NCBI GenBank assembly: GCA_052387735.1
Contig: JBQTIW010000035.1
Coordinates: 24,626 to 88,625, forward strand
Source of the DNA: Gemmatimonadaceae bacterium
GTDB taxonomy: Bacteria; Gemmatimonadota; Gemmatimonadetes; Gemmatimonadales; Gemmatimonadaceae
Length of the DNA: 64,000 nucleotides
Direction: 5' to 3'
The notes beneath the pieces are model-generated. The model had not been told where the DNA came from and searched no databases. It worked only from the letters and a program-made list of their open reading frames with translations. How positions within the stretch are numbered: the first letter of the stretch is position 1; each line of letters starts with the position of its first letter. Positions 2,786 to 63,006 of this stretch are shown here, piece by piece. The position numbers and the translations under genes were made by a program.

Positions 2786-4258
2786 TCAAGACTCGCGGGA
2801 GCCGTTGCGCACCGCGGAGGTGGCGGGGGGGAGAAGGGCTCTCGGGGCGCGGCCGTTTTCCCTGGCCCTGGTCACGATCGAGATGCGGTCCCACCAGTCA
2901 ACGACCGCGCGCGCGGCCCGGCCGAGTACCGCGCCCACGATGGTCGGATAGTCGACGGCCGAGCGGCCGTCGTCCATGTTGAGCGACCGGAGGATCTGCG
3001 AGCGCATTTTGATCGCAATCGGGGCGGCAAAGTCGATGGGGTTGAAGTGCGCGTCGTAGCGCACGCCCAGCCCCTCGATCAGCGCCGCCGTGCGGGCGAA
3101 GTAGACCATCTCGCTCGTCAGGCGGACCGGCCAGTCATAGAGCGTCGCCAACACCTCCTGCGCCAGCAGCTGTACACGCTCGGTCATGGTGGACGGCTGG
3201 TAGGCGATGCTCATGAGCCGGTCCGCGAGTGGACGCAGCTGTTCGTTGGTGGTCTCCGGTGCCAGCAGGCCTAACGAGCGGAATCCATCGAGAATGCCAT
3301 CCGTGTCGCGACGGATGGCGGCGAACACGGTAGCCACGAGATCGGCGCGCATCTGTCTGGACACGCGGATCACCATGCCGAAATCCAGGATGACGATGCG
3401 ACCGTCGGGCGCGACCAGAATGTTGCCGGGATGGGGGTCGGCGTGGAAGAAGCCGTCCACCAGCATCATCTTGAGGTAGAGCTCCATCACATGGCTCACG
3501 ACCCCTCGCGGATCGTGCGTGGAGTCACCATGGCGCGGGTGGATGCGGTCCACGCGCGTGCCCTCAACGTACTCGAGCACCAGGGCGCGCGGGCGTGTCA
3601 GCTCGGAAATGACTTCCGGGACGATGATGCGGGGATTCCCGCGGAAGTTTTCCCCGATCTCGATCGCATTGGCGGCCTCACGAACAAAGTCCATCTCCTC
3701 CCACACGCGAACGGCAAATTCCTCAATGACGATGCGTGCGTTGTGGATATGCGGATTGGGGAAGCGCCGTGCGAACCAGGCGACCAGGGGCCGGAACACG
3801 GCGAGATCCTGGCGCACCAGCTCCTCGACGCTGGGACGCAGGACCTTGATGACGACGTCGCGCCCGTGGTGACGCGCCCGATGCACCTGTCCTAACGAGG
3901 CCGCGGCAAGGGGCTCGTTCTCGAACATATCGAACAGCTGTTCGGGCGTGCGCCCGTAGGAGTGCTCGATCTCGTGACGGATCGCCGTGGTGGGGACCGG
4001 CGGGACCTGGTCGGTGAGGGCCGACAGCGCGCCGACGTATGGTTCCGGGATCAGGTCCGAGCGCGATGCGAAGATCTGCGCCATCTTCACAAACGAGGGG
4101 CCGAGCCTGGCGAGGGTCTCCACGACGCGTTCGGCGCGGACCTGGTGGAACTCCGGAGTGCGCTCGACACCCTTTCCCCACCAGATCCAGCGCCGCCAAT
4201 CCCGGATAAACGAGACGACCAGCGGAGTCAGGTAGCGGAGGATGACCAGCGCGCGCAT
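2786..4258 (-). CDS. ABC1/UbiB-family atypical protein kinase
   Basis: 490 aa with family motifs FVKMAQIFASRSDLIP, ASLGQVHRA, VIKVLRP, HADPHPGNILV, ILDFGM. Confidence 0.8.
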   Translation of the reverse strand: MRALVILRYLTPLVVSFIRDWRRWIWWGKGVERTPEFHQVRAERVVETLARLGPSFVKMAQIFASRSDLIPEPYVGALSALTDQVPPVPTTAIRHEIEHSYGRTPEQLFDMFENEPLAAASLGQVHRARHHGRDVVIKVLRPSVEELVRQDLAVFRPLVAWFARRFPNPHIHNARIVIEEFAVRVWEEMDFVREAANAIEIGENFRGNPRIIVPEVISELTRPRALVLEYVEGTRVDRIHPRHGDSTHDPRGVVSHVMELYLKMMLVDGFFHADPHPGNILVAPDGRIVILDFGMVIRVSRQMRADLVATVFAAIRRDTDGILDGFRSLGLLAPETTNEQLRPLADRLMSIAYQPSTMTERVQLLAQEVLATLYDWPVRLTSEMVYFARTAALIEGLGVRYDAHFNPIDFAAPIAIKMRSQILRSLNMDDGRSAVDYPTIVGAVLGRAARAVVDWWDRISIVTRARENGRAPRALLPPATSAVRNGSRES

Positions 4259-4319
4259 CTGACCAATCTACCCGGGTTTGGCGGCCAGCCTTCCCTCATT
4301 TTCCCCAACTCACTGCCAC

Positions 4320-4333
4320 GATCATGCATGATC
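4320..4333. promoter_or_regulatory. perfect 14-bp palindrome GATCATGCATGATC in a divergent intergenic region (candidate operator)
   Basis: Read directly. It lies between the divergent starts at 4258 (-) and 4353 (+). Confidence 0.3.
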
Positions 4334-4352
4334 GGGCCCACCGAGAACCCCT

Positions 4353-4859
4353 ATGTTTCAAACCGCCTGTCATGCCGCGGTCCTCGTCGGCGCGCTCGTG
4401 CTGCTGAGTACGCAGCCTCTCCCCGCGCAGCGCGCGGCGGACGATCGCGACGCCGCGGAAATTCGACGACGCCGCGAATCGTCGAATGCAGCGATCGCCC
4501 GTCACGATACGGCCGGAATCGCGGCGATCCTCGCACCGTCCGTCATGGTCCTGTCGTCCAACTCAGCGGCGATCCTGGGTCGCGACACCAACGCGCAGCG
4601 CCTCGCCGATCAGTTCCGGACCCGTCCGGACGTGGTGTATCGACGGACGCCGGAGCGGGTGAGGGTGTTCGGCCCGTGGCGGATGGCGAGCGAGCTGGGA
4701 CGCTGGACCGGCTCTTGGACGGACGCCGACGGTCGGCTGACGATTGGCGGGGCCTACTTCGCGAAGTGGCGCGAAATCAATGGTCAATGGCTTGTCGAGA
4801 GCGAAACCTACGTGCCCGAGAGCTGCGTCGGTGGGGCGTATTGCAGCAGGGTGCCGTAG
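4353..4859 (+). CDS. secreted SnoaL-like/DUF4440 (NTF2-fold) protein
   Basis: 168 aa. Signal peptide MFQTACHAAVLVGALVLLSTQPLPAQ. Shows the pattern typical of DUF4440/NTF2-like proteins (IRRRESSNAAIARHDTAGIAAILAP..., ...GGAYFAKWREINGQWLV). Confidence 0.55.
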   Translation: MFQTACHAAVLVGALVLLSTQPLPAQRAADDRDAAEIRRRRESSNAAIARHDTAGIAAILAPSVMVLSSNSAAILGRDTNAQRLADQFRTRPDVVYRRTPERVRVFGPWRMASELGRWTGSWTDADGRLTIGGAYFAKWREINGQWLVESETYVPESCVGGAYCSRVP

Positions 4860-4863
4860 GACC

Positions 4864-4941
4864 GAGACGGGAGACAAAGACCGGAGAGCGTGAGCCGCAC
4901 TCCGCAGCAGATCTCCACTCCTACCTCCCGTCTCCCGTCTC
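4864..4941. repeat. G-rich/C-rich inverted repeat between convergent genes (likely bidirectional terminator; member of the heptad repeat family)
   Basis: GAGACGGGAGAC (4864-4875) is the exact reverse complement of GTCTCCCGTCTC (4930-4941). Arms show 7-nt periodicity (CTCCCGT CTCCCGT). Confidence 0.5.
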
Positions 4942-5384
4942 TAGAACGGCAGCAGTGGCCGGTCCCATGGGATGAAGCCCAGAATCGACGCCAGTGCGAT
5001 TCCCCACCAGATCGTGGCCGTTTGAAATCGGCCGGAATCACTCTTCGCCTTCCGGACGCGCGAGAGCCCGATGTGCGTGAGCGCTACGGAGATCAGCATC
5101 ATCACGGGGTGCTCCACCACGATTTTTCGCATCGCCGGGTCCGACATCGCCGCGCCCATGTCCGCCATCCCCTGGCGGGTCAGGGGACTGACCGCGTAGA
5201 GCAGTACCCCAAGCACGAATTGCAGCGAGATCGTGGCCGCGAACGCCTTGCCGGCCTTCAGATCGGCGTCGGTCCACTGGGCTCGCTGCATCCAGCCGCG
5301 CCAGGCATGCCAGAACGCCCAGAGTCCGGCGAGCACGACGACCCACCTAACGAGATTGTGCGTGATAAGGATGGCGGAATACAT
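4941..5384 (-). CDS. hypothetical integral membrane protein (about 4 TM helices)
   Basis: ATG at 5384 (MYSAILITHNLVRWVVVLAGLWAFW...). The upstream part of the 241-aa track ORF is Arg/Gly-rich shadow sequence. Hydrophobic segments run throughout. Confidence 0.5.
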   Translation of the reverse strand: MYSAILITHNLVRWVVVLAGLWAFWHAWRGWMQRAQWTDADLKAGKAFAATISLQFVLGVLLYAVSPLTRQGMADMGAAMSDPAMRKIVVEHPVMMLISVALTHIGLSRVRKAKSDSGRFQTATIWWGIALASILGFIPWDRPLLPF

Positions 5385-5557
5385 GTGTGAGACGGGACGG
5401 GTGACGGGAGTTGACGTCGCGAATGCGGGTCGGTTGGCCTCGACGGTCCAAGCTACGGCCGAAGACCAGAGGGCTCCAGTCGTCATGTCACGCCCTTGGT
5501 GGGGATGTGCCCCTGGCGTACATTCGCGCGTCGCTGCCCGACCCTCACAACCTCGCC

Positions 5558-8167
5558 ATGCGCCGTCTCGTCCTTCCAGCCCTGCTCGCGGTCTTCGCCG
5601 GTTCTGCCGCAGCGCAGCACCCATACTCGGAGGCCGGCAGCACCTATGACCCGCGCGTGCCCACACCCCGGTCGGTCCTCGGTTACGACCTCGGCCAGCG
5701 CTTCACCACACACCGAGCCATGCTTCGCTACGTCGAGCGCGTCGCTTCCGCGTCACGGCGCGTGAAGGTGGACACGGTTGCTCGGTCGTTCGAAGGGCGT
5801 GAGATGTTGCTCATCACCGTCTCGTCGGAGGCGAACATGGCGCGCCTCGCCGACCTGCAGGTCGACGCCCGTCGCGTCGCCGACCCGCGGACCGGATCCA
5901 CGGCCGAAGTGGAGGCGGCCGTTAGGCGTAGCCCGTCGATCGTCTGGCTGGCGCACTCGGTGCACGGCGGCGAGGCGTCAGGCGTCGAAGCGGGGATCGC
6001 GCTCCTGTATCAGCTGGCCGCCGGAACCGACGCCGAGACACGCCTGGCGCTCGACAGCACGGTTGTCCTGATCGACCCCATGCAGAACCCGGATGGTCGG
6101 GAGCGTCACACCCACGACGTCGAACGCCTGTGGAGTTTCCGGTCGCTGCCCACCGAGCCCGGCGCGTTGAACAACGCCGGGTCATGGCCCGGACCACGCA
6201 CGAGCCACTACTCGTTCGATCTCAATCGCGACTGGTTCATCCTGTCGCATCCGGAATCGCAGGGACGTGTCGCGTCGTTTCTCAAATGGATGCCACACGT
6301 TGCGGTCGACCTGCATGAGCAGGGGTCGAGCGCGACCTTCTATTTCGCGCCACCCCGGGAGCCCGACAACCGCAACAATCCGAAGCATCTCTTCAAGTGG
6401 TTCGACATCTTTGCCGCGGCACACGGCGCGGCGTTCGATGCGCACGGCTGGTCGTACTTTCGTCGCGAAGGCTACGACTCCTTCTATCCGGGATACGGCG
6501 AAGGCTGGCCGATGCTCACCGGCTCGATCGGCATGCTGTTCGAGTCCGCCTCCTCGTCGGGCGGGGCGATCCGCCGCAACGACGGCACGCTACGCACGCT
6601 CAAGCAGGCCGCCTGGGAGCACTACACGGCGGAGTGGACCACCGTGCGCACATCCGCGCGGCGACGCGCTGAGCTCGTCAGCGACTACGCGAAGTCGCGT
6701 CGTGACGCCATCAGTATCCATGCCGCCGGACCCATGCGCAGCGTCGTCTTCGAGCGCGACGGCCAGGGCCGCGCCGACACCCTCGCGCTGCGATTGAAGG
6801 CCAACGGCATCGACGTGATGCGCCTGACGAGTGACGCGGACCTGCGCGACGCGACGTTGTTCGGTGAGAAGACGGCGGCACCGTCGACACGAGTGCGGGC
6901 CGGCGCGTACGTCGTGGACCTCGCGCAACCGCAGGGACACCTCGCCAAGGCGCTGCTCGAGCCCGACGCCGAGCTCGATTCCGCATTCATCAAGCTGGAA
7001 TTGGAAATGCGACGCACGGGTCAGCCTGACCGGTTCTACGATATCACGGCGTGGTCGCTGCCCTTCGCCTATCGCGTGAGGGCCTGGCATACCAGGACCC
7101 TGCCCCCCTCGCTGTCGGCGATGGGTGAGCTCCCCCGCGATGCCATGTCGCGTGCGACTCGCGCGCGCTACGGATATGCCTTCGAGCCCGGCACGGAAGC
7201 GTCCAACCGGCTGCTGGCAGCGCTGCTCGAGGACTCCGTGAGAGTCTGGCACGCACCGCGTCCGTTCACGTCCGGTGGCAAGCGGTTTACGAAGGGCGCC
7301 TTTCTTGTGCGCGTAGCGTTCAACGACTCGTCGGTGCACGACGTGGTAGCCGAGCAGGCGACGCTGGCCGGCGCCGCCGTCTACGCGATCGCGTCTGCCG
7401 GGGTGGAAGCAGGTACGGATCTCGGTTCCAACTCGGTGCGCCCGATTCGCGTGCCCAAAGTCGCACTCCTCAGTGGTACGCCGGTGAGCGGCAACTCCTG
7501 GGGATTCACGTGGTATGCGATGGACCAGCGCCTGGGTTATCCCACGACCCTGGTGGATGCGAGCTTCCTCACCGCTGGCCTCGACGGGTTCAATGTGCTG
7601 ATCGTGCCGTCCGTCCCGGGTGCCGCCCTGGACCGCACGTTAGGTGACGCCGGCCGGACGCGTGTGGGTGACTGGGTGCGCAATGGTGGCGTGCTCATCA
7701 CCATCGACGCCGCCACCGCCTGGCTGGCGCAGGAGAGCACGCGCCTCGCGCGCGTCCGCGTTCGCCGGGACACGACTCGCGCCGATAGTGCGGGGGGAGC
7801 GCCACTGCAGACCGACCTCCCCGGCGTGATCGCGCGGGCCACGATCGACACGCTCTCGCCCCTGCTCGCCGGAGTTGCCGAGCTCGAGATCCCCGTGTTC
7901 GCGAACTCCGATCGTGTGCTCACCGTTCCGAAGGACCTGACCGCCGGTGAAGCGGTGATCCGGTTCGCGCCGGAGGGTCGTGTACGGCTCGCTGGCTACT
8001 TCTGGCCGGAGATGCCGGCGCGCATCGCCCTGTCGCCGTGGCTATGGACCGAGCGCGTCGGCAGGGGACGGGTGATCGCGTTTGCGCACGACGTCAACTT
8101 CCGCGACCTGTTCCGTGGGCTGCTGCCGATCTTTGGTAACGCCGTGCTGCTCGGCGGGACCTTCTAA
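5558..8167 (+). CDS. secreted M14-family metallocarboxypeptidase-like protein (large, multidomain)
   Basis: Start at MRRLVLPALLAVFAGSAAAQ (signal peptide). HSVHGGEASG contains the HxxE zinc-ligand motif of M14. 869 aa. Confidence 0.75.
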   Translation: MRRLVLPALLAVFAGSAAAQHPYSEAGSTYDPRVPTPRSVLGYDLGQRFTTHRAMLRYVERVASASRRVKVDTVARSFEGREMLLITVSSEANMARLADLQVDARRVADPRTGSTAEVEAAVRRSPSIVWLAHSVHGGEASGVEAGIALLYQLAAGTDAETRLALDSTVVLIDPMQNPDGRERHTHDVERLWSFRSLPTEPGALNNAGSWPGPRTSHYSFDLNRDWFILSHPESQGRVASFLKWMPHVAVDLHEQGSSATFYFAPPREPDNRNNPKHLFKWFDIFAAAHGAAFDAHGWSYFRREGYDSFYPGYGEGWPMLTGSIGMLFESASSSGGAIRRNDGTLRTLKQAAWEHYTAEWTTVRTSARRRAELVSDYAKSRRDAISIHAAGPMRSVVFERDGQGRADTLALRLKANGIDVMRLTSDADLRDATLFGEKTAAPSTRVRAGAYVVDLAQPQGHLAKALLEPDAELDSAFIKLELEMRRTGQPDRFYDITAWSLPFAYRVRAWHTRTLPPSLSAMGELPRDAMSRATRARYGYAFEPGTEASNRLLAALLEDSVRVWHAPRPFTSGGKRFTKGAFLVRVAFNDSSVHDVVAEQATLAGAAVYAIASAGVEAGTDLGSNSVRPIRVPKVALLSGTPVSGNSWGFTWYAMDQRLGYPTTLVDASFLTAGLDGFNVLIVPSVPGAALDRTLGDAGRTRVGDWVRNGGVLITIDAATAWLAQESTRLARVRVRRDTTRADSAGGAPLQTDLPGVIARATIDTLSPLLAGVAELEIPVFANSDRVLTVPKDLTAGEAVIRFAPEGRVRLAGYFWPEMPARIALSPWLWTERVGRGRVIAFAHDVNFRDLFRGLLPIFGNAVLLGGTF

Positions 8168-9168: not shown

Positions 9169-9181
9169 TTGGACTGATCTC

Positions 9182-9520
9182 CTAACGAGTTGAGGATACG
9201 ATGACCGTGCCCCGCATGAACTGGTGCCGGTCGCAGAAGTAGGTGTGCGTGCCCGCCCGGTCGAACCGTTTCGTCGCCGACCTGCCCGCGTCCCTCAGCA
9301 CGTGGTTCCACGCCGCTGTCCTGGCCTGGGGCGTGCCGCCGGTGACGGTATGCTCGACCTGGTCACGGTTCACCCAGGTGACCGCGGTACCGACCGCGAC
9401 ACGAGTGGTGTCTGGCGAGAACTGGAAGGTCTTCAGTTCTACGGTGACCGCTCGGTCGGAAAACGACGGCAAGGTCTGGATGCCAGCGGCAGCGGCGATG
9501 GCAAGGATCAGGGAGCGCAT
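9182..9520 (-). CDS. cupredoxin (plastocyanin/amicyanin-like type-1 copper protein)
   Basis: Signal peptide MRSLILAIAAAAG. Cu-ligand pattern ..VEHTV.. and YFCDRHQFMRG (C-x2-H-x2-M). An alternative GTG start at 9559 is possible. Confidence 0.7.
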   Translation of the reverse strand: MRSLILAIAAAAGIQTLPSFSDRAVTVELKTFQFSPDTTRVAVGTAVTWVNRDQVEHTVTGGTPQARTAAWNHVLRDAGRSATKRFDRAGTHTYFCDRHQFMRGTVIVSSTR

Positions 9521-9670
9521 AACGAGCGAGTTGAGGCGTGTCCACGGACGGGCGAACACACCCTGATTACGCCGCCGGAGACTGTCCGGATTGCCGCTGC
9601 GAGGTTCTCGGGGACTGGTGGATCGTCGCGCCGATGGTGATTGTCATCGCGCCCTGTGTGGAGAACGGCG

Positions 9671-10522
9671 ATGAGAGCTCGTGCGTCACGCTGGATACCC
9701 GCCCTGATGCTGGCTGTCGGATGCATCGGCACGAGCGCACGCTCGGGACCGGAGGCGACGTGGGAAGCGCATGCCGTTCGGTTCGCCACGATTCCAGGCT
9801 TCCGTGTGCGGTCGCTCATTCCGGGTGTGGACAGCGCTCGGCGCCTGGACATCGCCATGATGGTCTGGCCGCTCGTCGCGCCTAACGGTGACATCGTCCT
9901 GGTGGACGCGGGCTTCACGCGCCAGAAGTTCATCACCCAATGGAAACCTGCCGACTATGTCATGCCCGATTCGGCCCTCAGGCGCGGCGGGTTCGACCCG
10001 GCGCGGGTCACCGACATCGTGATCTCCCACATCCATTGGGATCACGCCGACGGCGTCGAGCGCTTTCCGGGAGCGCGCATCTGGCTCCAGCGCGAGGAGT
10101 TCGAGCACTACGTGGGAGCCACCGGCGAAGCGAAGCAGACTGCGATCGATCCCGAGGTCGCTGCGATGTACCGGCAGCTGTTCACCGCTGGTCGCATTCG
10201 ACTCGCCGAGGGTGACAGCGCCGAGATCCGGCCCGGCATCCGCGTGCACACCGGTGGCAAGCACACGTTCGCATCGCAGTTCGTCTCGGCCCGCACGCGC
10301 GGGGGCACCGTGGTCATCGCGTCGGACAACGCGTACCTCTACGAGAACCTCGAGCGGCAGCGTCCGATCGCGCAGACGCTGGACTCGCTGTCGAACCTTT
10401 CGGCCCAGCGCCGCATGCGGGCGATCGCCGCGCGCCCTGAGTGGGTGATCCCGGGACACGACCCCGCGGTATTCGCGCGCTTCCCCGTCACGCCGGCGGG
10501 TGTAGCGACCATCAGAGACTAG
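9671..10522 (+). CDS. metallo-beta-lactamase-fold hydrolase (N-acyl-homoserine-lactonase-like)
   Basis: GGAGA 6 nt upstream of the ATG at 9671. Signal-like N-terminus. HxHxDH motif SHIHWDHADG. Confidence 0.75.
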   Translation: MRARASRWIPALMLAVGCIGTSARSGPEATWEAHAVRFATIPGFRVRSLIPGVDSARRLDIAMMVWPLVAPNGDIVLVDAGFTRQKFITQWKPADYVMPDSALRRGGFDPARVTDIVISHIHWDHADGVERFPGARIWLQREEFEHYVGATGEAKQTAIDPEVAAMYRQLFTAGRIRLAEGDSAEIRPGIRVHTGGKHTFASQFVSARTRGGTVVIASDNAYLYENLERQRPIAQTLDSLSNLSAQRRMRAIAARPEWVIPGHDPAVFARFPVTPAGVATIRD

Positions 10523-10526: not shown

Positions 10527-12227
10527 TCACGACCTTCGCATTCGCTCCAGCTCGCGAACCACGCTCTCCGGCCCGACGCGACGCCCGAGGAACTGCTCCA
10601 ACACTTCGCGCGATGGCTTCGACTGACCGAACTGATAGAGCGCATCGCTGAGCCAGTCGTACAGCGTTGCACCACTGGTGGTGAACCCGCCGCGCTTCGC
10701 GCGCACACGTTCCCGCACATCGGCCGCGACCATCGCGCCTAACGCATAGTTCATCAGGTAGCCGGGACTCGACACCAGCTGACCTCGCATCGCCCACCAC
10801 GACCACTCGGGATGCGGTGCAATGCGCAGATACGTCCTGGTGATGTCGGTCCAGGTGACGTTCGGGTCCCGCCCGGGATCCTGGTGCATCCGCAGCTCGA
10901 ACAAGGCCCACGCCACGTCCATCATCACGGCGCTGTACCGTTCGCGGAGCGACTCGGCCGTCGTCACGGAATCGCCAAGGTACTTCTGTTGCCAGATTCC
11001 CTCGTAGGCTTCCCCTGCCGGGACGTCGGCCAGCCCCTCGGTGAATGGATCGCTGTCGGGCCAGTCGGCAAAGGCCGGTCGCGTGTCGACAGCGCCGATG
11101 TGAATCGCGTGCCCGGACTCGTGCAGAAGCTCGACCAGGCTCCCCAGTCCGCCCTCACGATACGTGGCGAACACCCAGGGATCGGCGCCTCGCGGCCCGT
11201 CGCGGGTGCGGCGCGGTAGCCCGCCGAACTGCGTGAATGCGACGGGGGTCTTTCCCTCCCGCGGCACCAGGTCGTAGCGGACGCCCAACGTGCGCGGCGA
11301 TGCGCCGAAGGCTGCGAAATACGTCTCGTTGATCCGCTCCAGCTCCCCCAGCGGTATACGGTTCGACAGACGCCGACTGGCCGATTCGTTCTCGTAATAC
11401 CAGTCCCACGGCTCGGTGAGGTCGTCGGACATCTGCCGGCGCCACGCATCCAGCATCGCGATGAGGACCCGTTCTACGGACAACGGATCCAGCCCTAACG
11501 AGCGTGCCGCGGCATCGACCGGCGAGCCGGATCGCCGCCACTGGTCGGCACTCAGGCGCACCAGCTCGCGGTAGGGACTTGCCGGCATGTTCGACCCGTT
11601 CACACTCTCCCACACCGGTCGCAGCGAGAGAAACAGCGCACGTCGTTTGGCCGCTGAGGGCTCGGTCCCCAGCCGCGACAGAACGGTCAGACGGTCAACC
11701 GTATCAGTCGAGGTGACCACATGCGTCGCCTGGTAGCCGTAGCAGGCATAGACTGGATCGGACAGGGCGCTGAATCCTGACTGCGCGGCATCGGCGACGC
11801 TGTAGTTGCAGACGCGGTGCTCGCGGCGATGCTGCCGGGAGGAAACGGGAGCCAGGTTGGCCCGCATCACCGTGATGGCCCGCTGGTCCTCTGCGCCAAA
11901 GCGAGCGGAGTCCAGAGCGTCCAGCCGTTCAATGGCGCGCTCCCGCAGCGCTTCGTAGCTGCGCACCAGCTCCTCCAGCGGGATGCCCCGGGTACTGCGG
12001 CCGGTGCCATTCGCCTCCGTCACCGCGACCTGGAAGTACAGGTCCCGGGCGTCCCCATAGAGCGACTCCGCTTCGGCGAGTCGTTGGGCGGGAGTCGCCT
12101 CCGTAGGGGGCTGGATGTACTGGATGCAGCTTGTGAGAAGGGCGACAAGGACGAGGCGGGCAGCAGTGCCGGGCACCCGGTCTCCCCATCCCTGACCCGC
12201 TCGTGGCCTGGCGTCTGTAGCTTTCAC
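10527..12227 (-). CDS. HEXXH zinc metallopeptidase lipoprotein
   Basis: GTG at 12227 preceded by GAGGAG. Lipobox LVALLTSC. LLHESGHAIH zinc-binding motif. Confidence 0.65.
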   Translation of the reverse strand: MKATDARPRAGQGWGDRVPGTAARLVLVALLTSCIQYIQPPTEATPAQRLAEAESLYGDARDLYFQVAVTEANGTGRSTRGIPLEELVRSYEALRERAIERLDALDSARFGAEDQRAITVMRANLAPVSSRQHRREHRVCNYSVADAAQSGFSALSDPVYACYGYQATHVVTSTDTVDRLTVLSRLGTEPSAAKRRALFLSLRPVWESVNGSNMPASPYRELVRLSADQWRRSGSPVDAAARSLGLDPLSVERVLIAMLDAWRRQMSDDLTEPWDWYYENESASRRLSNRIPLGELERINETYFAAFGASPRTLGVRYDLVPREGKTPVAFTQFGGLPRRTRDGPRGADPWVFATYREGGLGSLVELLHESGHAIHIGAVDTRPAFADWPDSDPFTEGLADVPAGEAYEGIWQQKYLGDSVTTAESLRERYSAVMMDVAWALFELRMHQDPGRDPNVTWTDITRTYLRIAPHPEWSWWAMRGQLVSSPGYLMNYALGAMVAADVRERVRAKRGGFTTSGATLYDWLSDALYQFGQSKPSREVLEQFLGRRVGPESVVRELERMRRS

Positions 12228-12288
12228 ACCGATCTCCTCCGCTTCATCAAGAACGCTGCAACACACGGTACACCTACTCCGACTCCCC

Positions 12289-14082
12289 GTGCCGACGTTT
12301 CACGCCCCCACCCAGGACTACCGGTTTCTCTTGACGGAAGTGTTCGACCTCCAACGTCTGTCGACGTACCCTGGTTACGAGGAGGCGACTTCCGATCTGC
12401 TGGTATCTGTGCTCGAGGAGGCGGGCGCGTTGTGCGAGGAACTGCTGTTCCCGCTCAACATGGCGGGTGACGCGGAAGGGTGCACCTGGGACAACGGCAC
12501 GGTGCGGACGCCAACGGGCTTCCGCGAGGCCTTCCGGCAGTACGCAGCCGGTGGATGGATCGGCCTTTCGAGCGATCCCGCGTACGGCGGGCAGGGCTTG
12601 CCCATCGTGATGCGTTATGTCATCGATGAAATGGTGTGCGCAGCCAACCTCTCGTTCGCCATGTATCCCGGTCTCACGCAGGGCGCGCTCGAGGCGATCC
12701 ACACGCACGGCACCGAGGACCTCCACGCGAAGTTCTTGCCGAAGATGACCACCGGCGAGTGGACGGGGACGATGTGCCTCACCGAAGCGCATGCGGGGAC
12801 GGACCTCGGGATGATCCGTACGCGCGCCCAACCGATGGACGATGGGAGCTGCAGCATTTCCGGCACGAAGATCTTCATCACGGCCGGCGAGCACGATCTG
12901 GCGAAGAACATCATTCACCTCGTCCTTGCCAAACTGCCCGATGCACCGGCCGGATCGCGCGGGATATCCATGTTCCTCGTGCCCAAGTTCCTGGTCAACG
13001 CCGATGGTTCGTTAGGCCCGCGCAACGGCGTGACCTGCGGTTCGATCGAACACAAGATGGGCATCAAGGGATCCGCGACGTGCGTCATCAACTTCGACAA
13101 CGCCAAGGGATGGCTGGTGGGCGAGGCGCACAAGGGCCTGCGCGCGATGTTCACGATGATGAACGGTGCGCGGCTCGGCGTCGGACTGCAGGGGCTGGGA
13201 CTCGCCCACGCGAGCTATCAGAGCGCAGTGGCCTACGCGCGCGAGCGGCTGCAGGGGCGCGCCCTGTCCGGACCGAAGAACGCCGGCGGGCCGGCCGACC
13301 CGATCATCGAACACGCGGACATTCGGCGCGGCCTGCTGGCCATGCGCGCGTTCATCGAAGGGGCGCGTGCGCTGGCAGTGTTCTGCGCGCTGCAACTCGA
13401 CGATGAACACATGCATCCCGACGCCAGCGTGCGCGAGCAGGCGGCGGATCTGGTGGCACTGCTCACGCCCATCATCAAAGCCTTGTTTACGGACCTCGGA
13501 TTCGAAAGCACCAACATCGGCATGCAGACGTTAGGTGGACACGGCTACATCCGCGAATACGGAATGGAGCAATACGTGCGCGATGCGCGCATCGGGCAGA
13601 TCTACGAGGGTACCAATCACGTGCAGGCGTTGGACCTGGTCGGGCGCAAACTGGGTGAGGGCAACGGGAGACTCCTCACACGGTATCTGGGGATCGTCGG
13701 CGGCGAGCTGGCGGCCGCGCGCTCGGTGCACGGCCTGGAAGAACACACCGCGACGCTCGCCGAGGCCGTCCAACGGCTGGAGCGTTCGACGCTGCAGATC
13801 GCGCAGCGGGCATTGAAGTCACCCGACGAAGTCGGAGCCGCGGCATCGGAGTACTTGCGGATGTTCGGCTTCGTCGCACTGGGCCACATGTGGTTGCGGA
13901 TGGCGCGCATCGCCGGCGAGCGCGCGCGATCCGGCGGCGCCCTGTCTGCCGACTTCTATCAGGCAAGGCTGGGCGTGGCCAGGTACTACTTCCAGCGTGT
14001 CATGCCGCAGACCGTGGCACTCGCCGCTGCGATCGAGGCGGGTGCTTCGCCGGTAGTGGACTTCCCGACCAGCTGGTTCTAG
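12289..14082 (+). CDS. long acyl-CoA dehydrogenase (with C-terminal extension domain)
   Basis: 597 aa. GTG start. MPTFHAPTQDYRFLL N-terminus and LTEAHAGTDLG, QTLGGHGYIREYGMEQYVRDARIGQIYEGTN motifs typical of ACADs. Confidence 0.85.
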   Translation: MPTFHAPTQDYRFLLTEVFDLQRLSTYPGYEEATSDLLVSVLEEAGALCEELLFPLNMAGDAEGCTWDNGTVRTPTGFREAFRQYAAGGWIGLSSDPAYGGQGLPIVMRYVIDEMVCAANLSFAMYPGLTQGALEAIHTHGTEDLHAKFLPKMTTGEWTGTMCLTEAHAGTDLGMIRTRAQPMDDGSCSISGTKIFITAGEHDLAKNIIHLVLAKLPDAPAGSRGISMFLVPKFLVNADGSLGPRNGVTCGSIEHKMGIKGSATCVINFDNAKGWLVGEAHKGLRAMFTMMNGARLGVGLQGLGLAHASYQSAVAYARERLQGRALSGPKNAGGPADPIIEHADIRRGLLAMRAFIEGARALAVFCALQLDDEHMHPDASVREQAADLVALLTPIIKALFTDLGFESTNIGMQTLGGHGYIREYGMEQYVRDARIGQIYEGTNHVQALDLVGRKLGEGNGRLLTRYLGIVGGELAAARSVHGLEEHTATLAEAVQRLERSTLQIAQRALKSPDEVGAAASEYLRMFGFVALGHMWLRMARIAGERARSGGALSADFYQARLGVARYYFQRVMPQTVALAAAIEAGASPVVDFPTSWF

Positions 14083-18960: not shown

Positions 18961-18962
18961 TC

Positions 18963-22726: not shown

Positions 22727-22867
22727 TGTATCAGGCGATGATAGTGACCGCTAGGCGGTTCACCGAGTGATCCTGGTCCGTTGGATGGCAGACAAGTGCC
22801 GCGATATATGATCGATGATGTCGCCATTTGTCGCCCTTACTGTGGGAATTTGGTAGTGAGCCATACG

Positions 22868-48164: not shown

Positions 48165-48733
48165 TCGTGATGATCGACAATTACGACTCGTTCACCTGGA
48201 ACCTCGTGCAGTACCTCGGAGAACTCGGGGCCGAGGTGCGGGTGGTGCGCAACGATGCGACCACCGTGGACGAGCTGATCGCCCTGGACCCGGAGCGGGT
48301 GGTGATCTCGCCTGGCCCCTGCTCACCTAACGAAGCGGGTGTGTCGCTCGAAGTGATCACCCGGTTCGCAGGGCGGGTCCCCGTACTGGGTGTCTGTCTG
48401 GGTCACCAGGCCATCGGGCAGGCGTTCGGCGGGCGCGTGGTGCACGCAAAGACCCTGATGCATGGAAAGGTCGCGCCGATCGAGCACACGGGTGTGGGAG
48501 TTTTTCGCGACCTCCCTACGCCGTTCGCCGCAACACGCTATCACTCGCTCGCCGTCGAGCGGGCCAATCTTCCGGACTGCCTCGAGGTCACCGCGTGGAC
48601 GGCGGATGGGGAGATCATGGGCTTGCGGCACAGGGAGTACGCCGTCGAGGGTGTGCAGTTCCATCCGGAATCGATCCTTACCGAACATGGACACGCCCTT
48701 CTGAGGAACTTTCTGTCGCTCCAGGCCGGGTAG
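48161..48733 (+). CDS. trpG: anthranilate synthase component II / glutamine amidotransferase
   Basis: [23 protein letters not shown]..., [10 protein letters not shown] (catalytic Cys), VQFHPES. ATGA overlap with trpE. Confidence 0.9.
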
Positions 48734-55263: not shown

Positions 55264-57921
55264 ATGTTGCGACTAGGGTTCGCGGTAGCGATTGCACTTG
55301 GTGGATTGCAGGTGCTGCGCGCACAGTCGTTCCCCGCCCGCGACGCCGGCTGGCAATCCGATATCGATTTCTTGCTGCAGCAACTCGGGAAGCAGCACCT
55401 GGTGCTGAGTCGACGACCGCTCCCCGCACCGCTGGTGCAGGCAGCAGCGCGACTCAAGGACTCGGTGCGTGTGTTCAGCGACGAGCGCATGCTCATTGAA
55501 CTGCAGCGTCTCGCCGCTTTCGCCGGCGACGGGCACACCTACGTGCTTCCGATGGGCGCCGAGCGCGCGCAATCGACGGTGCTTCCATTGCGCTTCTATG
55601 CATTCTCCGATGGACTCCATGTGATCGATGCCCAGCCGGGCCACGAGCAATGGATCGGCAGCCGAGTTCTGCGTTTCGGCTCGCTCCCAGCCGAACACGC
55701 GATGCGCAAGGTGCGAGAACTCATCAGTCGCGACAACGCGATGGGTGTGCAATGGGTCGGTCCGTTCTTCCTCGGCTTCCGTGGAACGCTCGAGGCGTTG
55801 ACCGACGCGGTGGATCTCAGGAGTGCGGAGCTCACCTTGCACACACGTGAGGGGCGGACCACCACGACTCGGCTTCCGTTTGTTGCTCCACCTCGCATGC
55901 GCGGTATTCCCAAGCTGCCGGCACCACGACAATCATCTGCGCCGGCCGCACCACGCTGGTTAGGCAACGTCGACACACCCTACTGGTTCGACTCGCTCCA
56001 GAGCGGAACGATGTTCGTGCAGTTCAATCAGGTGATGGACGCTCCGGCCGAGCCGATCGAGCAGTTCGCCACACGGCTGGCGGCGGCCATTGCCTGGCAG
56101 CGTCCTCGTGTCGTGATCGTGGATGTGCGGCACAACAACGGAGGAAGCAAGGAACTGCTGCCCCCGCTCACGCGCGTGCTGCGGGAGTTCGACCAGAGTC
56201 GCCCCGACGCCCGGCTGTATGTACTGACGGGACGCAACACCTTCTCCGCAGCGCAGGTGTTCATCGCGCAATTGGCGCGTGACACGAAGGCCGTGTTCGC
56301 CGGAGAAGCGAGCAGCTCGCGTCCCAACTTTGTGGGGGAAGAGAATGCGGTGGTGCTGCCCTGGAGCGGTGCGATGGCAAGTGTCTCCAACCGCGAGCAC
56401 ATCAGCATCCCCGGCGATCGCCGGGAGCTCATCCCGCCATCGCTTCCCGTAGCGCTCCGCGCGGCCGACTACTTTGGCGGGCGCGACCCGGTGCTCGAGG
56501 CGGTGCTACGCGATTCCCGGAGCCGGAACCTGGCCCCGGAGCCGGACCTCGCGATCACCAACGTGACGGTGGTTGAGCCGGGGCCCGGCGCGCGATCGCT
56601 GACTGGTCAAACCATACTGATCCGCGGAGGGATGATCGAAACGGTGGGCCCCAGCCCCACGACGCCAGTGCCTCGCGGAATACGACGCGTCGATGCGCGC
56701 GGCAAGTATGCCATTCCTGGACTGTGGGACATGCACGTTCACTTCATGAACACTGGGGTGAGCGCGTTGCCGCTGCTGGTGGCTCACGGTGTCACGACAG
56801 TTCGAGAGATGGGAGGCTTCATCGACAGCACGCGCGCGTGGCAGGCGCGGATGCGCGCGGGTGCGCTGACTGGCCCGCGCATTCTCACGGCCGGCCCCAT
56901 TCTCGAGAGCCCGCGTTACTTGCAAGGTGTTCGCGATCGCAGTGTCCGCGACCCCCGACTGGCACAGCGGGTGCTGCCATATCGCATCTCCGTGGGGGGA
57001 GAGGACGACGCACGGCGCGCCATCGATTCGCTGGTGGCGCTCGGCGTCGACTTCGTGAAGGTTCGCACCACGGCATCTCCGCAGGCGTACTACGCGATCC
57101 TGCGGGAGGCGCGGCGCGCGCGATTGACGGTCACGGGGCACCAGCCGACCGCCGTGTCGTTAGGCGCAGCGCTGGACTCCGGACAGTCGGACATCTCGCA
57201 TGCCCTGTTCCCGATCCTCGCCCGCCTTCCCCCCGGAGCGCGTGACTCGATCTATCGCCGGTTCCTGGCGGCGCGGGCCTGGTATACGCCGACCCTCGTA
57301 GTGTCGCGGGCGGCGTCACTGCCGGGCGATTCGGCCGACCGGGCCATTTTTAGCGCGGAGGCTCGTCGCGGCGATCCGCGGCGAGCGTTTGCCTCGCCCT
57401 GGCTGCTGGAGTGGTGGCAGATGCAGGTCGATGAACGCAAGCTCGATACGGGCACAGCGCGGTGGGCCGAAGTGCGCGAAGGCTATCGCAGCAGCGTGGC
57501 CGATGTGCGACGGATGCAGGAACTCGGCGTGCCGATCCTGGCCGGCACCGACGCGGGATCAGTGCTGGTGTATCCCGGAATCAGTCTTCACGAAGAGCTG
57601 CAGCTGCTGGTCGAGGACGCCGGGTTGAGTCCTGCACAGGCTCTTTGGAGCGCGACCCTTGGCCCCGCGCAGTTCACCGGGAGGGCCGATTCACTCGGCC
57701 TGATCGCGGTGGGGAAAACCGCGGACCTCGTCCTGTTGGATGCGAATCCGATCGCCAACATCCGCAACACCCGTCGCATCGCCGCGGTGGTGAAAGGGGG
57801 CCACCTGCTGGATCGCCGGGCATTGGACGTCATGCTTCGCACGGTCCGTTCGGGAGAGGTACCGTCGTCTGGGTCTCGCGACGGTCCGACCGCGCCTACC
57901 GTCTCCCCAGCGCGCCAATAG
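55264..57921 (+). CDS. fusion of an S41-peptidase-like module and an amidohydrolase
   Basis: Signal peptide. S41-like blocks VIVDVRHNNGGS and VLTGRNTFSAAQVF. C-terminal amidohydrolase (ITNVTVVEP...AIPGLWDMHVHF...ADLVLLDANPI). Confidence 0.7.
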   Translation: MLRLGFAVAIALGGLQVLRAQSFPARDAGWQSDIDFLLQQLGKQHLVLSRRPLPAPLVQAAARLKDSVRVFSDERMLIELQRLAAFAGDGHTYVLPMGAERAQSTVLPLRFYAFSDGLHVIDAQPGHEQWIGSRVLRFGSLPAEHAMRKVRELISRDNAMGVQWVGPFFLGFRGTLEALTDAVDLRSAELTLHTREGRTTTTRLPFVAPPRMRGIPKLPAPRQSSAPAAPRWLGNVDTPYWFDSLQSGTMFVQFNQVMDAPAEPIEQFATRLAAAIAWQRPRVVIVDVRHNNGGSKELLPPLTRVLREFDQSRPDARLYVLTGRNTFSAAQVFIAQLARDTKAVFAGEASSSRPNFVGEENAVVLPWSGAMASVSNREHISIPGDRRELIPPSLPVALRAADYFGGRDPVLEAVLRDSRSRNLAPEPDLAITNVTVVEPGPGARSLTGQTILIRGGMIETVGPSPTTPVPRGIRRVDARGKYAIPGLWDMHVHFMNTGVSALPLLVAHGVTTVREMGGFIDSTRAWQARMRAGALTGPRILTAGPILESPRYLQGVRDRSVRDPRLAQRVLPYRISVGGEDDARRAIDSLVALGVDFVKVRTTASPQAYYAILREARRARLTVTGHQPTAVSLGAALDSGQSDISHALFPILARLPPGARDSIYRRFLAARAWYTPTLVVSRAASLPGDSADRAIFSAEARRGDPRRAFASPWLLEWWQMQVDERKLDTGTARWAEVREGYRSSVADVRRMQELGVPILAGTDAGSVLVYPGISLHEELQLLVEDAGLSPAQALWSATLGPAQFTGRADSLGLIAVGKTADLVLLDANPIANIRNTRRIAAVVKGGHLLDRRALDVMLRTVRSGEVPSSGSRDGPTAPTVSPARQ

Positions 57922-58457: not shown

Positions 58458-59720
58458 ATGCCCATGACGCGTTTCTTCGTTATCGCTTTCCTGTCTCTCA
58501 TTGCCCTTCCCGCGGCTGCGCAGGACCCTCACGTAGCCAAGGCCAGGCGCGTGCTTCGCAGCACGCCGCTGATCGATGGGCACAACGACTTGCCGTGGGT
58601 CATCAGGAACTTCCGCAGCGCGCCTCTGAGCGTGGATGCCTATGATCTGACGAAGCGCACAGCCGGTCACACGGACATTGCGCGGCTCCGCACGGGAATG
58701 GTCGGTGGCCAGTTCTGGTCGGTCTACATTCCGGGTGACATCAGAGACTCGGGCTTTGCCAAGGTGCAACTGGAACAGATCGACATCGCGAAGCAGGTGT
58801 TCCGGAAGTACCCCAGCGTGTTTCAGGAAGCATTGACCGCTGCCGCCATGCGGCGGGCCTTTGCATCCGGCCGAATCGGTTCGGTGATGGGAATGGAAGG
58901 GGGGCATGCCATCGAGAATTCGTTAGGCGCCTTGCGTGGGTTCTATGACATGGGAGTTCGCTACCTGACGCTCACGCACAACGTCACGCTGGACTGGGCC
59001 GACGCGGGCAATGGTGAACAGAAGCACGGCGGACTCACGAAGTTCGGTGAGGAAGTGGTCCGTGAGATGAACCGCCTGGGCATGCTTGTGGACCTGGCGC
59101 ACACCTCGCCAGCGACCATGAGCGACGCGCTGAATGTGTCCGAGGCGCCGGTTATCTGGTCGCATGCCTGCGCTCGCGCGATCACCGACGTGCCGCGCAA
59201 TGTGCCGGATTCGATCATCGCCCGCCTGCCGAAGAACGGTGGTGTGCTCATGGTGACGTTCGTGCCCGGCTTCCTCTCGCAGAAGGTTGCTGACTACGCC
59301 ATCGTCGCACGCGCCAAGCGCATTCAGTTCCGTACGGAGTTCGGCAGTGACACCACGGCGGTGAATCGCGCGCTCGCCGGTTGGCGCCAGACCAATCCTC
59401 CGCCCCGTGCCACGATCCAGGATGTTGCAGACCACATCGATCACGTTCGGAAGGTGGCTGGCGTCGATCATGTGGGGATCGGATCCGACTTTGACGGCGT
59501 CGACGAGTTGCCCGAGGGACTCGAGGACGTATCCAAATACCCGGCGCTCCTTGCCGAACTCTCGCGGCGTGGCTGGAGTGAGCGCGACCTGCGCAAGGTC
59601 GCCGGCGAGAACGTGCTGCGGGCACTCGCAGAGGCGGAGCGAGTCGCCGCTCGATTGCAGAGAACGCGACGCCCGTCGACGAAGACGATCGCGGAGCTGG
59701 ACGGCCGGACCCGGATGTAG
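58458..59720 (+). CDS. membrane dipeptidase (peptidase family M19)
   Basis: Signal peptide. PLIDGHNDLPW, GGQFWSVY, MGMEGGHAIE..YLTLTHN, VDLAHTS, GIGSDFDG motifs. Confidence 0.85.
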   Translation: MPMTRFFVIAFLSLIALPAAAQDPHVAKARRVLRSTPLIDGHNDLPWVIRNFRSAPLSVDAYDLTKRTAGHTDIARLRTGMVGGQFWSVYIPGDIRDSGFAKVQLEQIDIAKQVFRKYPSVFQEALTAAAMRRAFASGRIGSVMGMEGGHAIENSLGALRGFYDMGVRYLTLTHNVTLDWADAGNGEQKHGGLTKFGEEVVREMNRLGMLVDLAHTSPATMSDALNVSEAPVIWSHACARAITDVPRNVPDSIIARLPKNGGVLMVTFVPGFLSQKVADYAIVARAKRIQFRTEFGSDTTAVNRALAGWRQTNPPPRATIQDVADHIDHVRKVAGVDHVGIGSDFDGVDELPEGLEDVSKYPALLAELSRRGWSERDLRKVAGENVLRALAEAERVAARLQRTRRPSTKTIAELDGRTRM

Positions 59721-61533: not shown

Positions 61534-61539
61534 AGCAGA

Positions 61540-61680
61540 CGGAGCAGCGAGCAGGGAGAAGGGAGCGGGGAGCGGGCAGCGGGCAGCGGAGAGGAGAGCG
61601 GGGAGCGAACGGTCGATCGGGAGTGGGAGCTGGCCCAGAACTCTGCGTTCCGCTCTCCGCTCCCTGCTCTCCGCTCCCCC
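61540..61680. repeat. long imperfect G-rich/C-rich inverted heptad repeat between convergent genes (likely bidirectional terminator; G4-type run spacing)
   Basis: GGG runs at 61554, 61561, 61567, 61574 and 61581 with 3-4-nt spacers ((GGGNAGC)n). The C-rich partner CGCTCTCCGCTCCCTGCTCTCCGCTCCCCCC lies at about 61650-61680. Confidence 0.55.
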
Positions 61681-61686
61681 CTTGCT

Positions 61687-63006
61687 TCACCGCACCTTCG
61701 CCCGCTCGATCAGCTGTGCTCTCGCGCTGCGATCGAACACGCGTCCGTTCGCAATGACGACATGAATGCGACGTACGTTGGCGATATCGGCGAGCGGGTT
61801 GGCGTCGAGCACCACCAGATCGGCGAGCTTGCCCGCGGCCACGGTGCCCAGGGAGTCAGTTGCACCCAAGTACCGCGCCGGTTCCCACGTGGCAGCGCGC
61901 AGTGCTTGTGCCGGCGTGAGGCCACCACGCACCAAAAGGCCGAGCTCCTCGTGAATGGCCTCGCCCGGCAGGGCCGGAGCGACCGGCGTGTCGGAGCCGG
62001 TGAGAAGTGGCACGCCGGCGCGGGCGAGCGCACCTGCCATGGTGATGCGGCGCTCGTATACGGCGGCGCCGAGCTCTCGCTCGGCTGCAGTCGGGTTCTG
62101 TGGAACTCGCATCACGACCGCGAGCAGCGCCATCAGTGAGTCATTGTAGAACTGGCTGAGTCGATCACCCAGCGCGACTGGCGTGCGAAACTCGACGACC
62201 GAGCGCTGCACGATGAGCGTCGGGGTAATCCAGGTCCCGTTGTGCGCCAGGGCCTGGTAGATCGGGAACTGCGGGACCTGGGTACAGTTGCCCATCAGAA
62301 AGCGATGGAGCGGGTGCGCCGAGGCGAATCGCACCGAATCAGTCACAGAGCACTCGTTAGGAAATCCCGAGAGGTGCTCCTGACTGCGCTGTCCCGAATC
62401 GGACGCCTGGAGTGGAGTCACGGGCGGGAAGACATGCCCGGCGAAAGCAATGCCCCGCTCGCGTGCGCGCCGTGCGACGGCGAAGTAGGCCGACGGCGTG
62501 AGCCCGTTGTGTACCTTGATGAAGTCCACGCCCAGACCGATCAGCGAGTCGACCGCGGCGGCTCCTTCCGCGGAGGTGCCGGCGAACACATGCGGCAGCG
62601 GCACGCGCGCTCCCACCACATACGGCCCCGAAATCACCATGCGCGGACCGACGCGCGACCCGACCGATATCTCGCGCTGCCACGACCGCAGGACCGCGAG
62701 ACGACCATCCATGTCGCGAGCCCCCGTGACGCCGTGAGCGACATACAGCGGCAACAACCCATCACCGCCCGGTACGTCGTTATGCACGTGCATGTCCCAC
62801 AGTCCGGGAATGACAAACTTGCCACGTCCGTCGATCACCGTGGCGTTCTGCGGAACACGTGCCTGATTCGCGGCTGCTACCAGTTCCACACGTACACCGC
62901 GGATTACGATGGTCTGTCCGGGATGGATGCGGCCGCTGGAGGGGTCGACGACCGTGGTGTTGGTGATGGCAACCAGCTGCAGGAGTAGGGCAGTGTGGGC
63001 GATCAT
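61687..63006 (-). CDS. amidohydrolase-family protein (paralogue of the C-terminal module of 55264-57921)
   Basis: ITNTTVVDPSSG...VIPGLWDMHVHN...LADLVVLDANPL. Confidence 0.8.
   Translation of the reverse strand: MIAHTALLLQLVAITNTTVVDPSSGRIHPGQTIVIRGVRVELVAAANQARVPQNATVIDGRGKFVIPGLWDMHVHNDVPGGDGLLPLYVAHGVTGARDMDGRLAVLRSWQREISVGSRVGPRMVISGPYVVGARVPLPHVFAGTSAEGAAAVDSLIGLGVDFIKVHNGLTPSAYFAVARRARERGIAFAGHVFPPVTPLQASDSGQRSQEHLSGFPNECSVTDSVRFASAHPLHRFLMGNCTQVPQFPIYQALAHNGTWITPTLIVQRSVVEFRTPVALGDRLSQFYNDSLMALLAVVMRVPQNPTAAERELGAAVYERRITMAGALARAGVPLLTGSDTPVAPALPGEAIHEELGLLVRGGLTPAQALRAATWEPARYLGATDSLGTVAAGKLADLVVLDANPLADIANVRRIHVVIANGRVFDRSARAQLIERAKVR

Follow-up and report, generated by a model that had tools for sequence, protein, structure and literature searches.

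To our knowledge, few bacterial lineages carry a short DNA word that is genome-wide, unpolarised and under selection, namely the Pasteurellaceae with their uptake signal sequence (USS), the Neisseriaceae with their DNA uptake sequence (DUS) and the cyanobacteria with the octamer HIP1 (highly iterated palindrome 1), and each such word has given access to the question of how bacteria tell their own DNA from other DNA. The statistical signature of USS and DUS has been described, and in Haemophilus and Neisseria the genes that lack homologs also lack uptake sequences (PMC2817400). What HIP1 does is a matter of continuing debate, and recent work links it to transformation (bioRxiv 10.1101/2024.09.10.611283). 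Here we analyse the asymmetric heptamer CGTTAGG (CCTAACG on the complementary strand) in a stretch of 64,000 nucleotides from a Gemmatimonadaceae bacterium (contig JBQTIW010000035.1, positions 24,626 to 88,625; hereafter the window), in related loci and in the cultured carrier Gemmatirosa kalamazoonensis KBS708. The word, CGTTAGGY in its full form, belongs to the DNA duplex and recurs at about 0.5-1 copy per kb across all resident DNA in a subset of the Gemmatimonadaceae. The force that maintains it acts on DNA and not on protein or RNA, is independent of strand and transcription, and overrides codon bias and weak protein constraints.

The likeness to USS and DUS is drawn here from sequence statistics and extends to many properties. 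All are short asymmetric words with hundreds to thousands of copies at about one per kb, which occur in both orientations, show no replication polarity and are over-represented in intergenic DNA. Within genes all exhibit a strong frame bias and inflate the peptides and codons that they encode; all comprise a core with weaker flank preferences and are confined to one family. USS and DUS are rare in genes of foreign origin (PMC2817400), and the Gemmatimonadaceae word is correspondingly low in integron cassettes. In contrast, its core spans just 7-8 bp, it resides in genomes of more than 65% GC where it forces the rarest codon and does not ride on preferred ones, no dialects of it were seen in the loci sampled, its non-carriers are nested among carriers in a single-gene tree, and its copies are not paired as terminator inverted repeats. 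HIP1 (GCGATCGC) resembles the word in being enriched (15- to 300-fold) while embedded in coding sequence, in its patchy occurrence among relatives (PMC4390886) and in the conservation of orthologous sites, from which selection was inferred (PMC5861425). However, HIP1 is palindromic and overlaps conserved orphan methyltransferase sites, whereas the Gemmatimonadaceae word is asymmetric, the reverse complement of CGTTAGGC being GCCTAACG, and neither N6-methyladenine (m6A) nor N4-methylcytosine (m4C) is found at the word in KBS708.

Enrichment of the heptamer

Exact copies in the window number 35, of which 15 lie on the + strand and 20 on the - strand. An earlier note, made by manual scan of the sequence, had listed 34; every one of its coordinates is correct in the recount, and the single copy that it overlooked begins at 34613 on the + strand. 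Its eight additional copies of the hexamer GTTAGG/CCTAAC were also recovered (the entry at 46039 actually begins at 46040), its "about a dozen" extended copies correspond to 12 occurrences of CGTTAGGCGC, and its zero-order expectation of about 7 copies becomes 7.5 on recalculation. Dinucleotide-preserving shuffles of the window yielded a mean of 3.1 and a maximum of 7 copies, and Markov models of orders 1-3 predict 1.6-4.0. Per-gene synonymous codon shuffles, the null that the earlier note had proposed, gave 6.3 ± 1.7 copies with a maximum of 12. This last null is conservative because it retains four non-coding copies and reuses TTA and CCT codon pools that the motif itself has inflated. Matched words (CGTTACG, CGATAGG and others) occur 0-8 times each, and in a de novo scan of all 7-mers of the window CCTAACG is by far the strongest outlier (p = 1.7e-34). 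Most TTAG tetramers in the window (49 of 58) fall within GTTAG.

The core is all-or-none, as the one-off variants of the word remain close to background counts both in the window and on plasmid 1 of Gemmatirosa. The flanks are graded. Among 25 representative carriers from metagenomes, C occupies position +8 in 74% of copies and T in 16%, whatever the frame and also between genes, and the word is written CGTTAGGY because +8 is thus C or T in 90% of copies in all contexts; 27 of the 35 window copies fit this form. At position -1, A or T is preferred in intergenic copies.

The cultured carrier shows the same enrichment on a larger scale. Plasmid 1 of G. kalamazoonensis KBS708 (1,106,233 bp, 72.7% GC, read whole) carries 801 copies, or 0.72 per kb, against 32-38 expected from Markov models of orders 1-2, which is 21-25 times the expectation. 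Its coding sequences account for 538 copies, compared with 37 ± 6.8 under a codon-aware null. The octamer CGTTAGGC accounts for 778 of these copies and ranks first among the 8-mers of the replicon; it is followed at position +9 by G or A in 93% of cases, the word there reading CGTTAGGCR. The first 50 kb of plasmid 2 contain 20 copies, all of them CGTTAGGC. A second over-represented word on plasmid 1, GGACTGAA (120 copies against 6.5 expected; AGGACTGA occurs 84 times), is not enriched in the window, where it has 1 copy, and may belong to a repeat element.

Distribution among relatives

Relatives were sampled as metagenome and metagenome-assembled-genome (MAG) loci of about 20 kb, retrieved through homologues of the acyl-CoA dehydrogenase (ACAD) encoded in the window. 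The window ACAD itself is identical to a protein encoded on a 106-kb contig of a MAG classed as Gemmatimonadaceae bacterium. The earlier note had proposed looking for the same word in relatives, and it is present in about 40 of these loci at 0.2-2 copies per kb, usually as the top 7-mer of the locus. The ACAD-homologue loci thereby fall into two classes, those that carry the word (about 40) and those without any copy. As negative controls, 80 loci were retrieved through TrpE of the betaproteobacterial type; the unrelated high-GC control DNA (1.2 Mb, mostly Burkholderiales) contains 16 copies, or 0.013 per kb.

A neighbour-joining tree of ACAD places the carriers in three groups, with no outgroup carrying the word. 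The first group is a large monophyletic clade from soil and rhizosphere; the word is conserved over a large clade of soil Gemmatimonadaceae. The second is the clade of the window, comprising the window and loci L082, L165 and L163, within which two non-carriers, L081 and L084, also branch. The third is the isolated locus L087. The number of gains and losses is uncertain because the tree rests on a single gene. Locus L087 (JAABUZ0100009360.1) is the sole locus with all of its motif copies (8) on one strand, and it also contains 22 CCCCCCC runs against 2.3 expected.

Coding context and codon cost

Gene calling on the window yielded 49 genes that cover 88.7% of its length. With respect to these genes, 19 copies of the word are read as NCG-TTA-GGN, nine as CCT-AAC-G on the gene strand, two as C-GTT-AGG and one as C-CTA-ACG; one further copy (at 9181) provides the TAG stop codon of the cupredoxin gene, and three are intergenic. 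The earlier note counted 20 copies in the TTA-GG context, the difference of one being an open reading frame not called here. Its statement that several reading frames are used is overstated, since the two favoured frames represent the same codon phase on opposite strands, and this single phase is common to 28 of the 31 coding copies. In both favoured frames, motif positions 2 and 5 occupy wobble sites.

The cost in codon usage is considerable. TTA codons lie inside the word in 19 of 28 cases in the window and in 295 of 373 cases on plasmid 1, and 41 of the 74 TAA stop codons of plasmid 1 are provided by the word as CC-TAA-CG. The word thus reshapes codon usage, accounting for the majority of TTA codons and more than half of all TAA stops of a 1.1-Mb replicon, and it is a caveat for inferences based on codon usage and on TTA codons. 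Among the stop codons of 25 carrier loci, as called in this analysis, TAG contributes 84 of 224 (37%), which is high for DNA of more than 65% GC and derives partly from the word.

Within the window the word occupies 19 of 61 [S/P/T/A]-Leu-Gly sites and nine of 18 Pro-Asn-G.. sites. Across the window, the carrier loci and plasmid 1, occupancy of compatible peptides amounts to 25-35% for [SPTA]LG and 47-66% for PN[GADEV]. Part of the phase bias arises because of which peptides are compatible with the 8-mer; when only 8-mer-compatible peptides are considered, the dominant phase is occupied at 25.8% and 49.7% and the other open phase at 4.2% and 5.0%. The frame C-CTA-ACG can be reached from common leucine codons by a single synonymous change, yet it is rarely occupied. 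The frame pattern in the window prompted consideration of a mutational drive confined to one place in the motif (N to A at position 5), but this idea was weakened when each of the four open frames proved to be at least 10-fold enriched, a value that comes from a rough hand-derived expectation from codon frequencies in a larger set of loci. The proposal in the earlier note of a constraint at the DNA level, as opposed to a dipeptide preference, is strongly supported by the codon-shuffle nulls, by the excess in non-coding DNA and by the use of the rarest leucine codon.

Strand, spacing, location and site conservation

The word shows no polarity. Plasmid 1 carries 416 copies on one strand and 385 on the other, and 52.8% are co-oriented with the G-rich strand of the replichores defined by GC skew (p = 0.15). 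No strand skew is seen per locus in 22 loci either (chi-square p = 0.37), where the log-likelihood of a 50:50 model is 14.8 units above that of a 75:25 model. Copies in the sense (78) and antisense (82) orientations are balanced, which rejects a role at the RNA level.

Spacing on plasmid 1 is more even than random, with a coefficient of variation (CV) of 0.836 against 0.998 ± 0.038; both short gaps (below 500 bp, 135 against 198 expected) and long gaps (above 5 kb, 14 against 23 expected) are under-represented. The CV lies below the random value in nine of ten loci. The density is 1.53 per kb in non-coding DNA and 0.57 per kb in coding DNA of plasmid 1, and about 1.4-1.8 and 0.61 per kb, respectively, in the 25 carrier loci, a 2.7- to 3-fold difference. 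In the window alone the two densities are equal (0.55 per kb). Intergenic spacers of plasmid 1 have similar densities whether they are tandem (0.94 per kb), divergent (0.78) or convergent (0.92), and no peak of copies occurs near gene starts, so a role resembling a promoter -10 element or a Shine-Dalgarno sequence was rejected.

Individual sites are conserved beyond what the surrounding sequence identity provides. In alignments at 80-88% identity, 85% of motif sites are retained against 34% of control 7-mers, and at 88-95% identity the corresponding values are 87% and 53%. Two Pro-Asn sites of ACAD are written CCT-AAC-G in 25 loci each, whereas non-carrier sisters use CCC-AAC or CCG-AAC, and at one of these sites the asparagine, located in a variable loop, appears to be imposed by the DNA word. 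The bodies of the integron cassettes on plasmid 1 (35.7 kb), in contrast, contain six copies, or 0.17 per kb against 0.68 elsewhere (P = 1e-5).

Identity with the integron core site

An array of 85 repeats of about 100 nt, all in the same orientation and spaced 0.3-1.3 kb apart, occupies positions 810,274-856,147 of plasmid 1 (L184:10274 to L185:6147). The repeats are imperfect hairpins that open with GCCTAACG and close with CGTTAGGC or similar sequences, their general form being GCCTAACG...CAGCTGCAACGATTCGTTAGGC. Judged by these features, the array is a typical integron cassette array with 85 attC-like sites. The consensus of the integron core site is GTTRRRY, with the inverse core RYYYAAC (PMC3053210). 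The word is identical to the attC R-box of the plasmid 1 array, where it is present at both R'' and R', and CGTTAGGC corresponds to the published consensus with a flanking C. No intI gene was seen among the open reading frames examined to the left of the array, the search being partial, and the array may be an attC cluster that lacks an integrase.

Compared with known attC and attI sites, GTTAGGC/GCCTAAC is an exact match to the core site, and the 85 attC of plasmid 1 carry it as GCCTAACG...CGTTAGGC. The difference is that real core sites sit in imperfect hairpins of 57-141 nt at cassette boundaries, whereas the word is mostly isolated in ordinary genes. We cannot tell whether the identity is a coincidence, reflects a shared recognition protein or arose because attC sites conform to the word of their host, and it raises the question of the origin of attC.

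Candidate functions

We tentatively favour the possibility that the word is a self-recognition tag for DNA exchange of the uptake-signal type, analogous to USS and DUS. The machinery of natural transformation would include a DNA receptor, at the cell surface or in the periplasm, that prefers fragments bearing the word, and alleles with the word would be taken up and recombined more often. The word would then accumulate wherever coding permits, i.e., in intergenic DNA, in stop codons, at [S/P/T/A]-Leu-Gly and Pro-Asn-[G/A/D/E/V] and at variable residues, with an outcome of about one copy per kb-sized fragment. A sequence of this kind was among the explanations offered in the earlier note, and by analogy every statistical property that could be tested fits it. 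The uptake-type reading is preferred because the properties taken together correspond to the USS/DUS signature: the word lacks polarity, is evenly spaced, is in excess between genes and biased in frame within them, inflates certain peptides and codons, is depleted in mobile genes, has graded flanks and is restricted to certain lineages.

Several points weigh against this assignment. Natural competence in any member of the Gemmatimonadota is not reported in the literature searched. In Neisseriaceae and Pasteurellaceae the uptake word drifts but does not vanish; here deeply separated clades share an identical core and, in the single-gene ACAD tree, non-carriers are nested among carriers, with L081 beside the window. 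Alternative "dialect" words were sought in the loci of non-carrier relatives and none was found; of two candidates, ACAGGAT in L096 forms local tandem clusters instead, and GAAGTAC in L081 is built from in-phase preferred codons. The favoured frames in known USS genomes use preferred codons (PMC2817400), whereas the word uses the rarest, TTA. The other open codon phase remains 5-10 times less occupied after correction for peptide compatibility, for which no explanation was found. Moreover, the binding site of an abundant chromosomal protein would fit all of the statistical properties too.

Such a protein, an abundant cytoplasmic binder of duplex DNA with a selected chromosomal function (nucleoid structuring, scanning, or self-marking in defence or repair), is in our assessment an unlikely explanation, though one with a precedent in the role proposed for HIP1 in cyanobacteria; a nucleoid-protein or recombination site was likewise among the suggestions of the earlier note. 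It accounts for spacing and site conservation equally well as the uptake reading, and Xu et al. argued for a nucleoid role of HIP1 from even spacing, site conservation and absence of polarity (PMC5861425). The all-or-none core, with its one-off variants near background, is also in keeping with a binding site, and the identity with the integron core makes a tyrosine recombinase or an IntI-like protein one possible type of binder. However, neither the depletion in mobile cassettes nor the three-fold intergenic excess is specifically predicted, and an active integrase confronted with some 700 perfect core sites in every Mb should do harm and favour avoidance of the word, not its enrichment. The proposal that integron recombination left the copies behind as relics, or uses them as secondary attachment sites across the genome, starts from the same match to the attC/attI core-site consensus (PMC3053210) and from the 85-cassette array with the word at both R'' and R', and is very unlikely. 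Genome-wide, over 95% of copies lack both a hairpin and an attC partner, with about 10 convergent pairs among 687 copies outside the array; the copies are synonymous codons within conserved genes, which insertion at such sites would destroy, and no intI gene lies among the examined open reading frames near the array. Integron-insertion relics were rejected. A polar guide word such as Chi, read by RecBCD or AddAB, or KOPS (FtsK-orienting polar sequences) has barely any credibility left. Chi and KOPS are likewise over-represented 7-8-mers with a kb-scale density that act on duplex DNA, and a word of 7-8 bp at about one copy per 1.4-1.8 kb is within their range. Chi and KOPS words are, however, strongly co-oriented with replication (about 75-90%), whereas the present word has no polarity in the window (15:20), in the 22 loci or in the two replichores of the 1.1-Mb replicon (52.8%), and this lack of strand skew rules them out.

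The recognition site of a methyltransferase, also suggested in the earlier note, is contradicted as far as m6A and m4C are concerned. The single-molecule real-time (SMRT) methylome of KBS708 comprises three motifs only (RGATCY, ATGCAC and CCAGN7TCA, all m6A), and because none of them matches the word, the word is not an m6A or m4C site in this carrier (PMC3974934). A neutral variant invokes a 5-methylcytosine (m5C) methyltransferase with a very-short-patch-type endonuclease that repairs near-cognate mismatches to CGTTAGGC and so replenishes a functionless word, as in Elhai's model for HIP1 (PMC4390886). A core of 7-8 bp kept with the exactness of an enzyme site, the patchy phylogeny reminiscent of restriction-modification modules and the CpG within the word are compatible with such a drive. 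Standard SMRT analysis, as applied to KBS708, does not report m5C, and the KBS708 paper lists only m6A motifs. Replenishment is nevertheless improbable, given that the pairs restored by short-patch repair are G:C whereas what is rare in the word is its central TTA, that none of the one-off neighbours is depleted, and that near-cognate R' boxes (GTTAGC, GTTAGA, GTTGGG and others) remain unconverted in the attC array; the absence of m6A and m4C at the word counts against it as well. Repair biases of the Dcm/Vsr type in E. coli change word counts about two-fold, not 20-fold. A site-blind drive does not yield even spacing, and an m5C and short-patch-repair drive, although possible, is disfavoured by the even spacing together with the site conservation. 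Codon usage, dipeptide preference, chance and assembly artefacts can be set aside with near certainty. Some other apparent outliers are indeed artefacts, for example GAAGTAC in L081, which consists of the in-phase preferred codons AAG-TAC and TAC-TTC, but for the present word they are excluded by the codon-shuffle nulls, the use of the rarest codons, the non-coding excess and the occurrence of the same word in independent Illumina, PacBio and metagenome assemblies. A basecalling artefact of nanopore reads or of methylation was likewise rejected, the enrichment being equal in a Logan contig from a public run, in Joint Genome Institute (JGI) contigs and in a PacBio finished genome.

Neither the heptamer nor any uptake or iterated sequence of the Gemmatimonadota is mentioned in the literature searched, and searches on methylation motifs returned nothing relevant. 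It is conceivable, though on balance doubtful, that the word represents a family of DNA uptake signals that evolved independently, the third such family and the first from beyond the Proteobacteria, or, alternatively, that an integrase-related protein was recruited to read a genome-wide word. An uptake signal would imply sequence-selective natural transformation in an abundant and genetically intractable soil phylum. As the word is the canonical integron core site, attC-flanked cassettes would then carry built-in uptake tags, and constructs supplied with the word could make genetics feasible in a phylum for which genetic tools do not yet exist. The carrier G. kalamazoonensis KBS708 is culturable, which makes the uptake hypothesis directly testable. 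Whatever its function, the word can serve as a strong marker of lineage when metagenomic contigs are binned, and it flags foreign DNA in carrier genomes.

Individual copies in the window

Strands in this section are given in brackets, those of the copies referring to CGTTAGG. The NCG-TTA-GGN copies begin with 3270-3276 (-, TCG-TTA-GGC) and 3891-3897 (-, TCG-TTA-GGA), both in gene 2786-4258(-), followed by 7638-7644 (+, ACG-TTA-GGT) in gene 5507-8167(+). Gene 10527-12266(-) contains 10738-10744 (-, GCG-TTA-GGC) and 11494-11500 (-, TCG-TTA-GGG). The acyl-CoA dehydrogenase gene 12289-14082(+) contains 13010-13016 (+, TCG-TTA-GGC) and 13529-13535 (+, ACG-TTA-GGT), the latter with the same codons at the orthologous site in L082 and L083. 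Single copies are located at 18287-18293 (+, ACG-TTA-GGG) in gene 17458-18810(+), at 23697-23703 (+, CCG-TTA-GGC) in gene 22781-24016(+) and at 24071-24077 (+, CCG-TTA-GGC) in gene 23989-26196(+). Gene 29839-30435(-) has three, namely 29849-29855 (-, GCG-TTA-GGT), 30251-30257 (-, TCG-TTA-GGA) and 30404-30410 (-, GCG-TTA-GGT). The remaining copies in this frame are 36862-36868 (-, GCG-TTA-GGC) in gene 36513-36962(-), 40303-40309 (+, TCG-TTA-GGC) in the HrpB-type helicase gene 38424-40961(+), 42246-42252 (-, GCG-TTA-GGT) in gene 42041-42853(-), 43438-43444 (-, GCG-TTA-GGC) in gene 42840-44243(-), 57158-57164 (+, TCG-TTA-GGC) in gene 55264-57921(+) and 58921-58927 (+, TCG-TTA-GGC) in gene 58458-59720(+).

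The CCT-AAC-G (Pro-Asn) copies lie at 9881-9887 (-) in gene 9707-10522(+), 25396-25402 (-) in gene 23989-26196(+), 27805-27811 (-) in gene 26314-29778(+) and 32071-32077 (-) in gene 31588-33417(+). The copy missed in the earlier note, 34613-34619 (+), is read in this way in gene 33930-35522(-). Further downstream, the frame recurs at 48326-48332 (-) in gene 48161-48733(+), which is read as TrpG-like, at 53182-53188 (-) and 53467-53473 (-), both in gene 52537-55233(+), and at 62355-62361 (+) in gene 61687-63006(-).

The rarer contexts are C-GTT-AGG (Val-Arg) at 5346-5352 (-) in gene 4941-5486(-) and at 5920-5926 (+) in gene 5507-8167(+), and C-CTA-ACG (Leu-Thr on the gene strand) at 35337-35343 (+) in gene 33930-35522(-). 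The cupredoxin gene 9182-9559(-) has as its stop codon the TAG of the copy at 9181-9187 (-). The copy at 21572-21578 (-) is intergenic by the gene calls of this analysis, and those at 36194-36200 (+) and 36393-36399 (+) fall in the non-coding stretch 35523-36512, about 1 kb without a called gene, which the earlier note regarded as the edge of a pseudogene.

The segment 46680-48733 of the window encodes TrpE-like and TrpG-like proteins. This anthranilate synthase is nearest to those of Burkholderiales (64-77% amino-acid identity, 79 loci), the sole Gemmatimonadaceae match of the trpE-like gene being at 82% identity, which suggests an old transfer from Betaproteobacteria. The trpE gene (1.5 kb) contains no copy of the word. 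Finally, L096, a Gemmatimonadota-like contig without the word, has two intergenic clusters (L096:13025-13309 and L096:20000-20083) of tandem or inverted GACAGGATT units with 14 ACAGGAT in all, which resemble arrays of binding sites.

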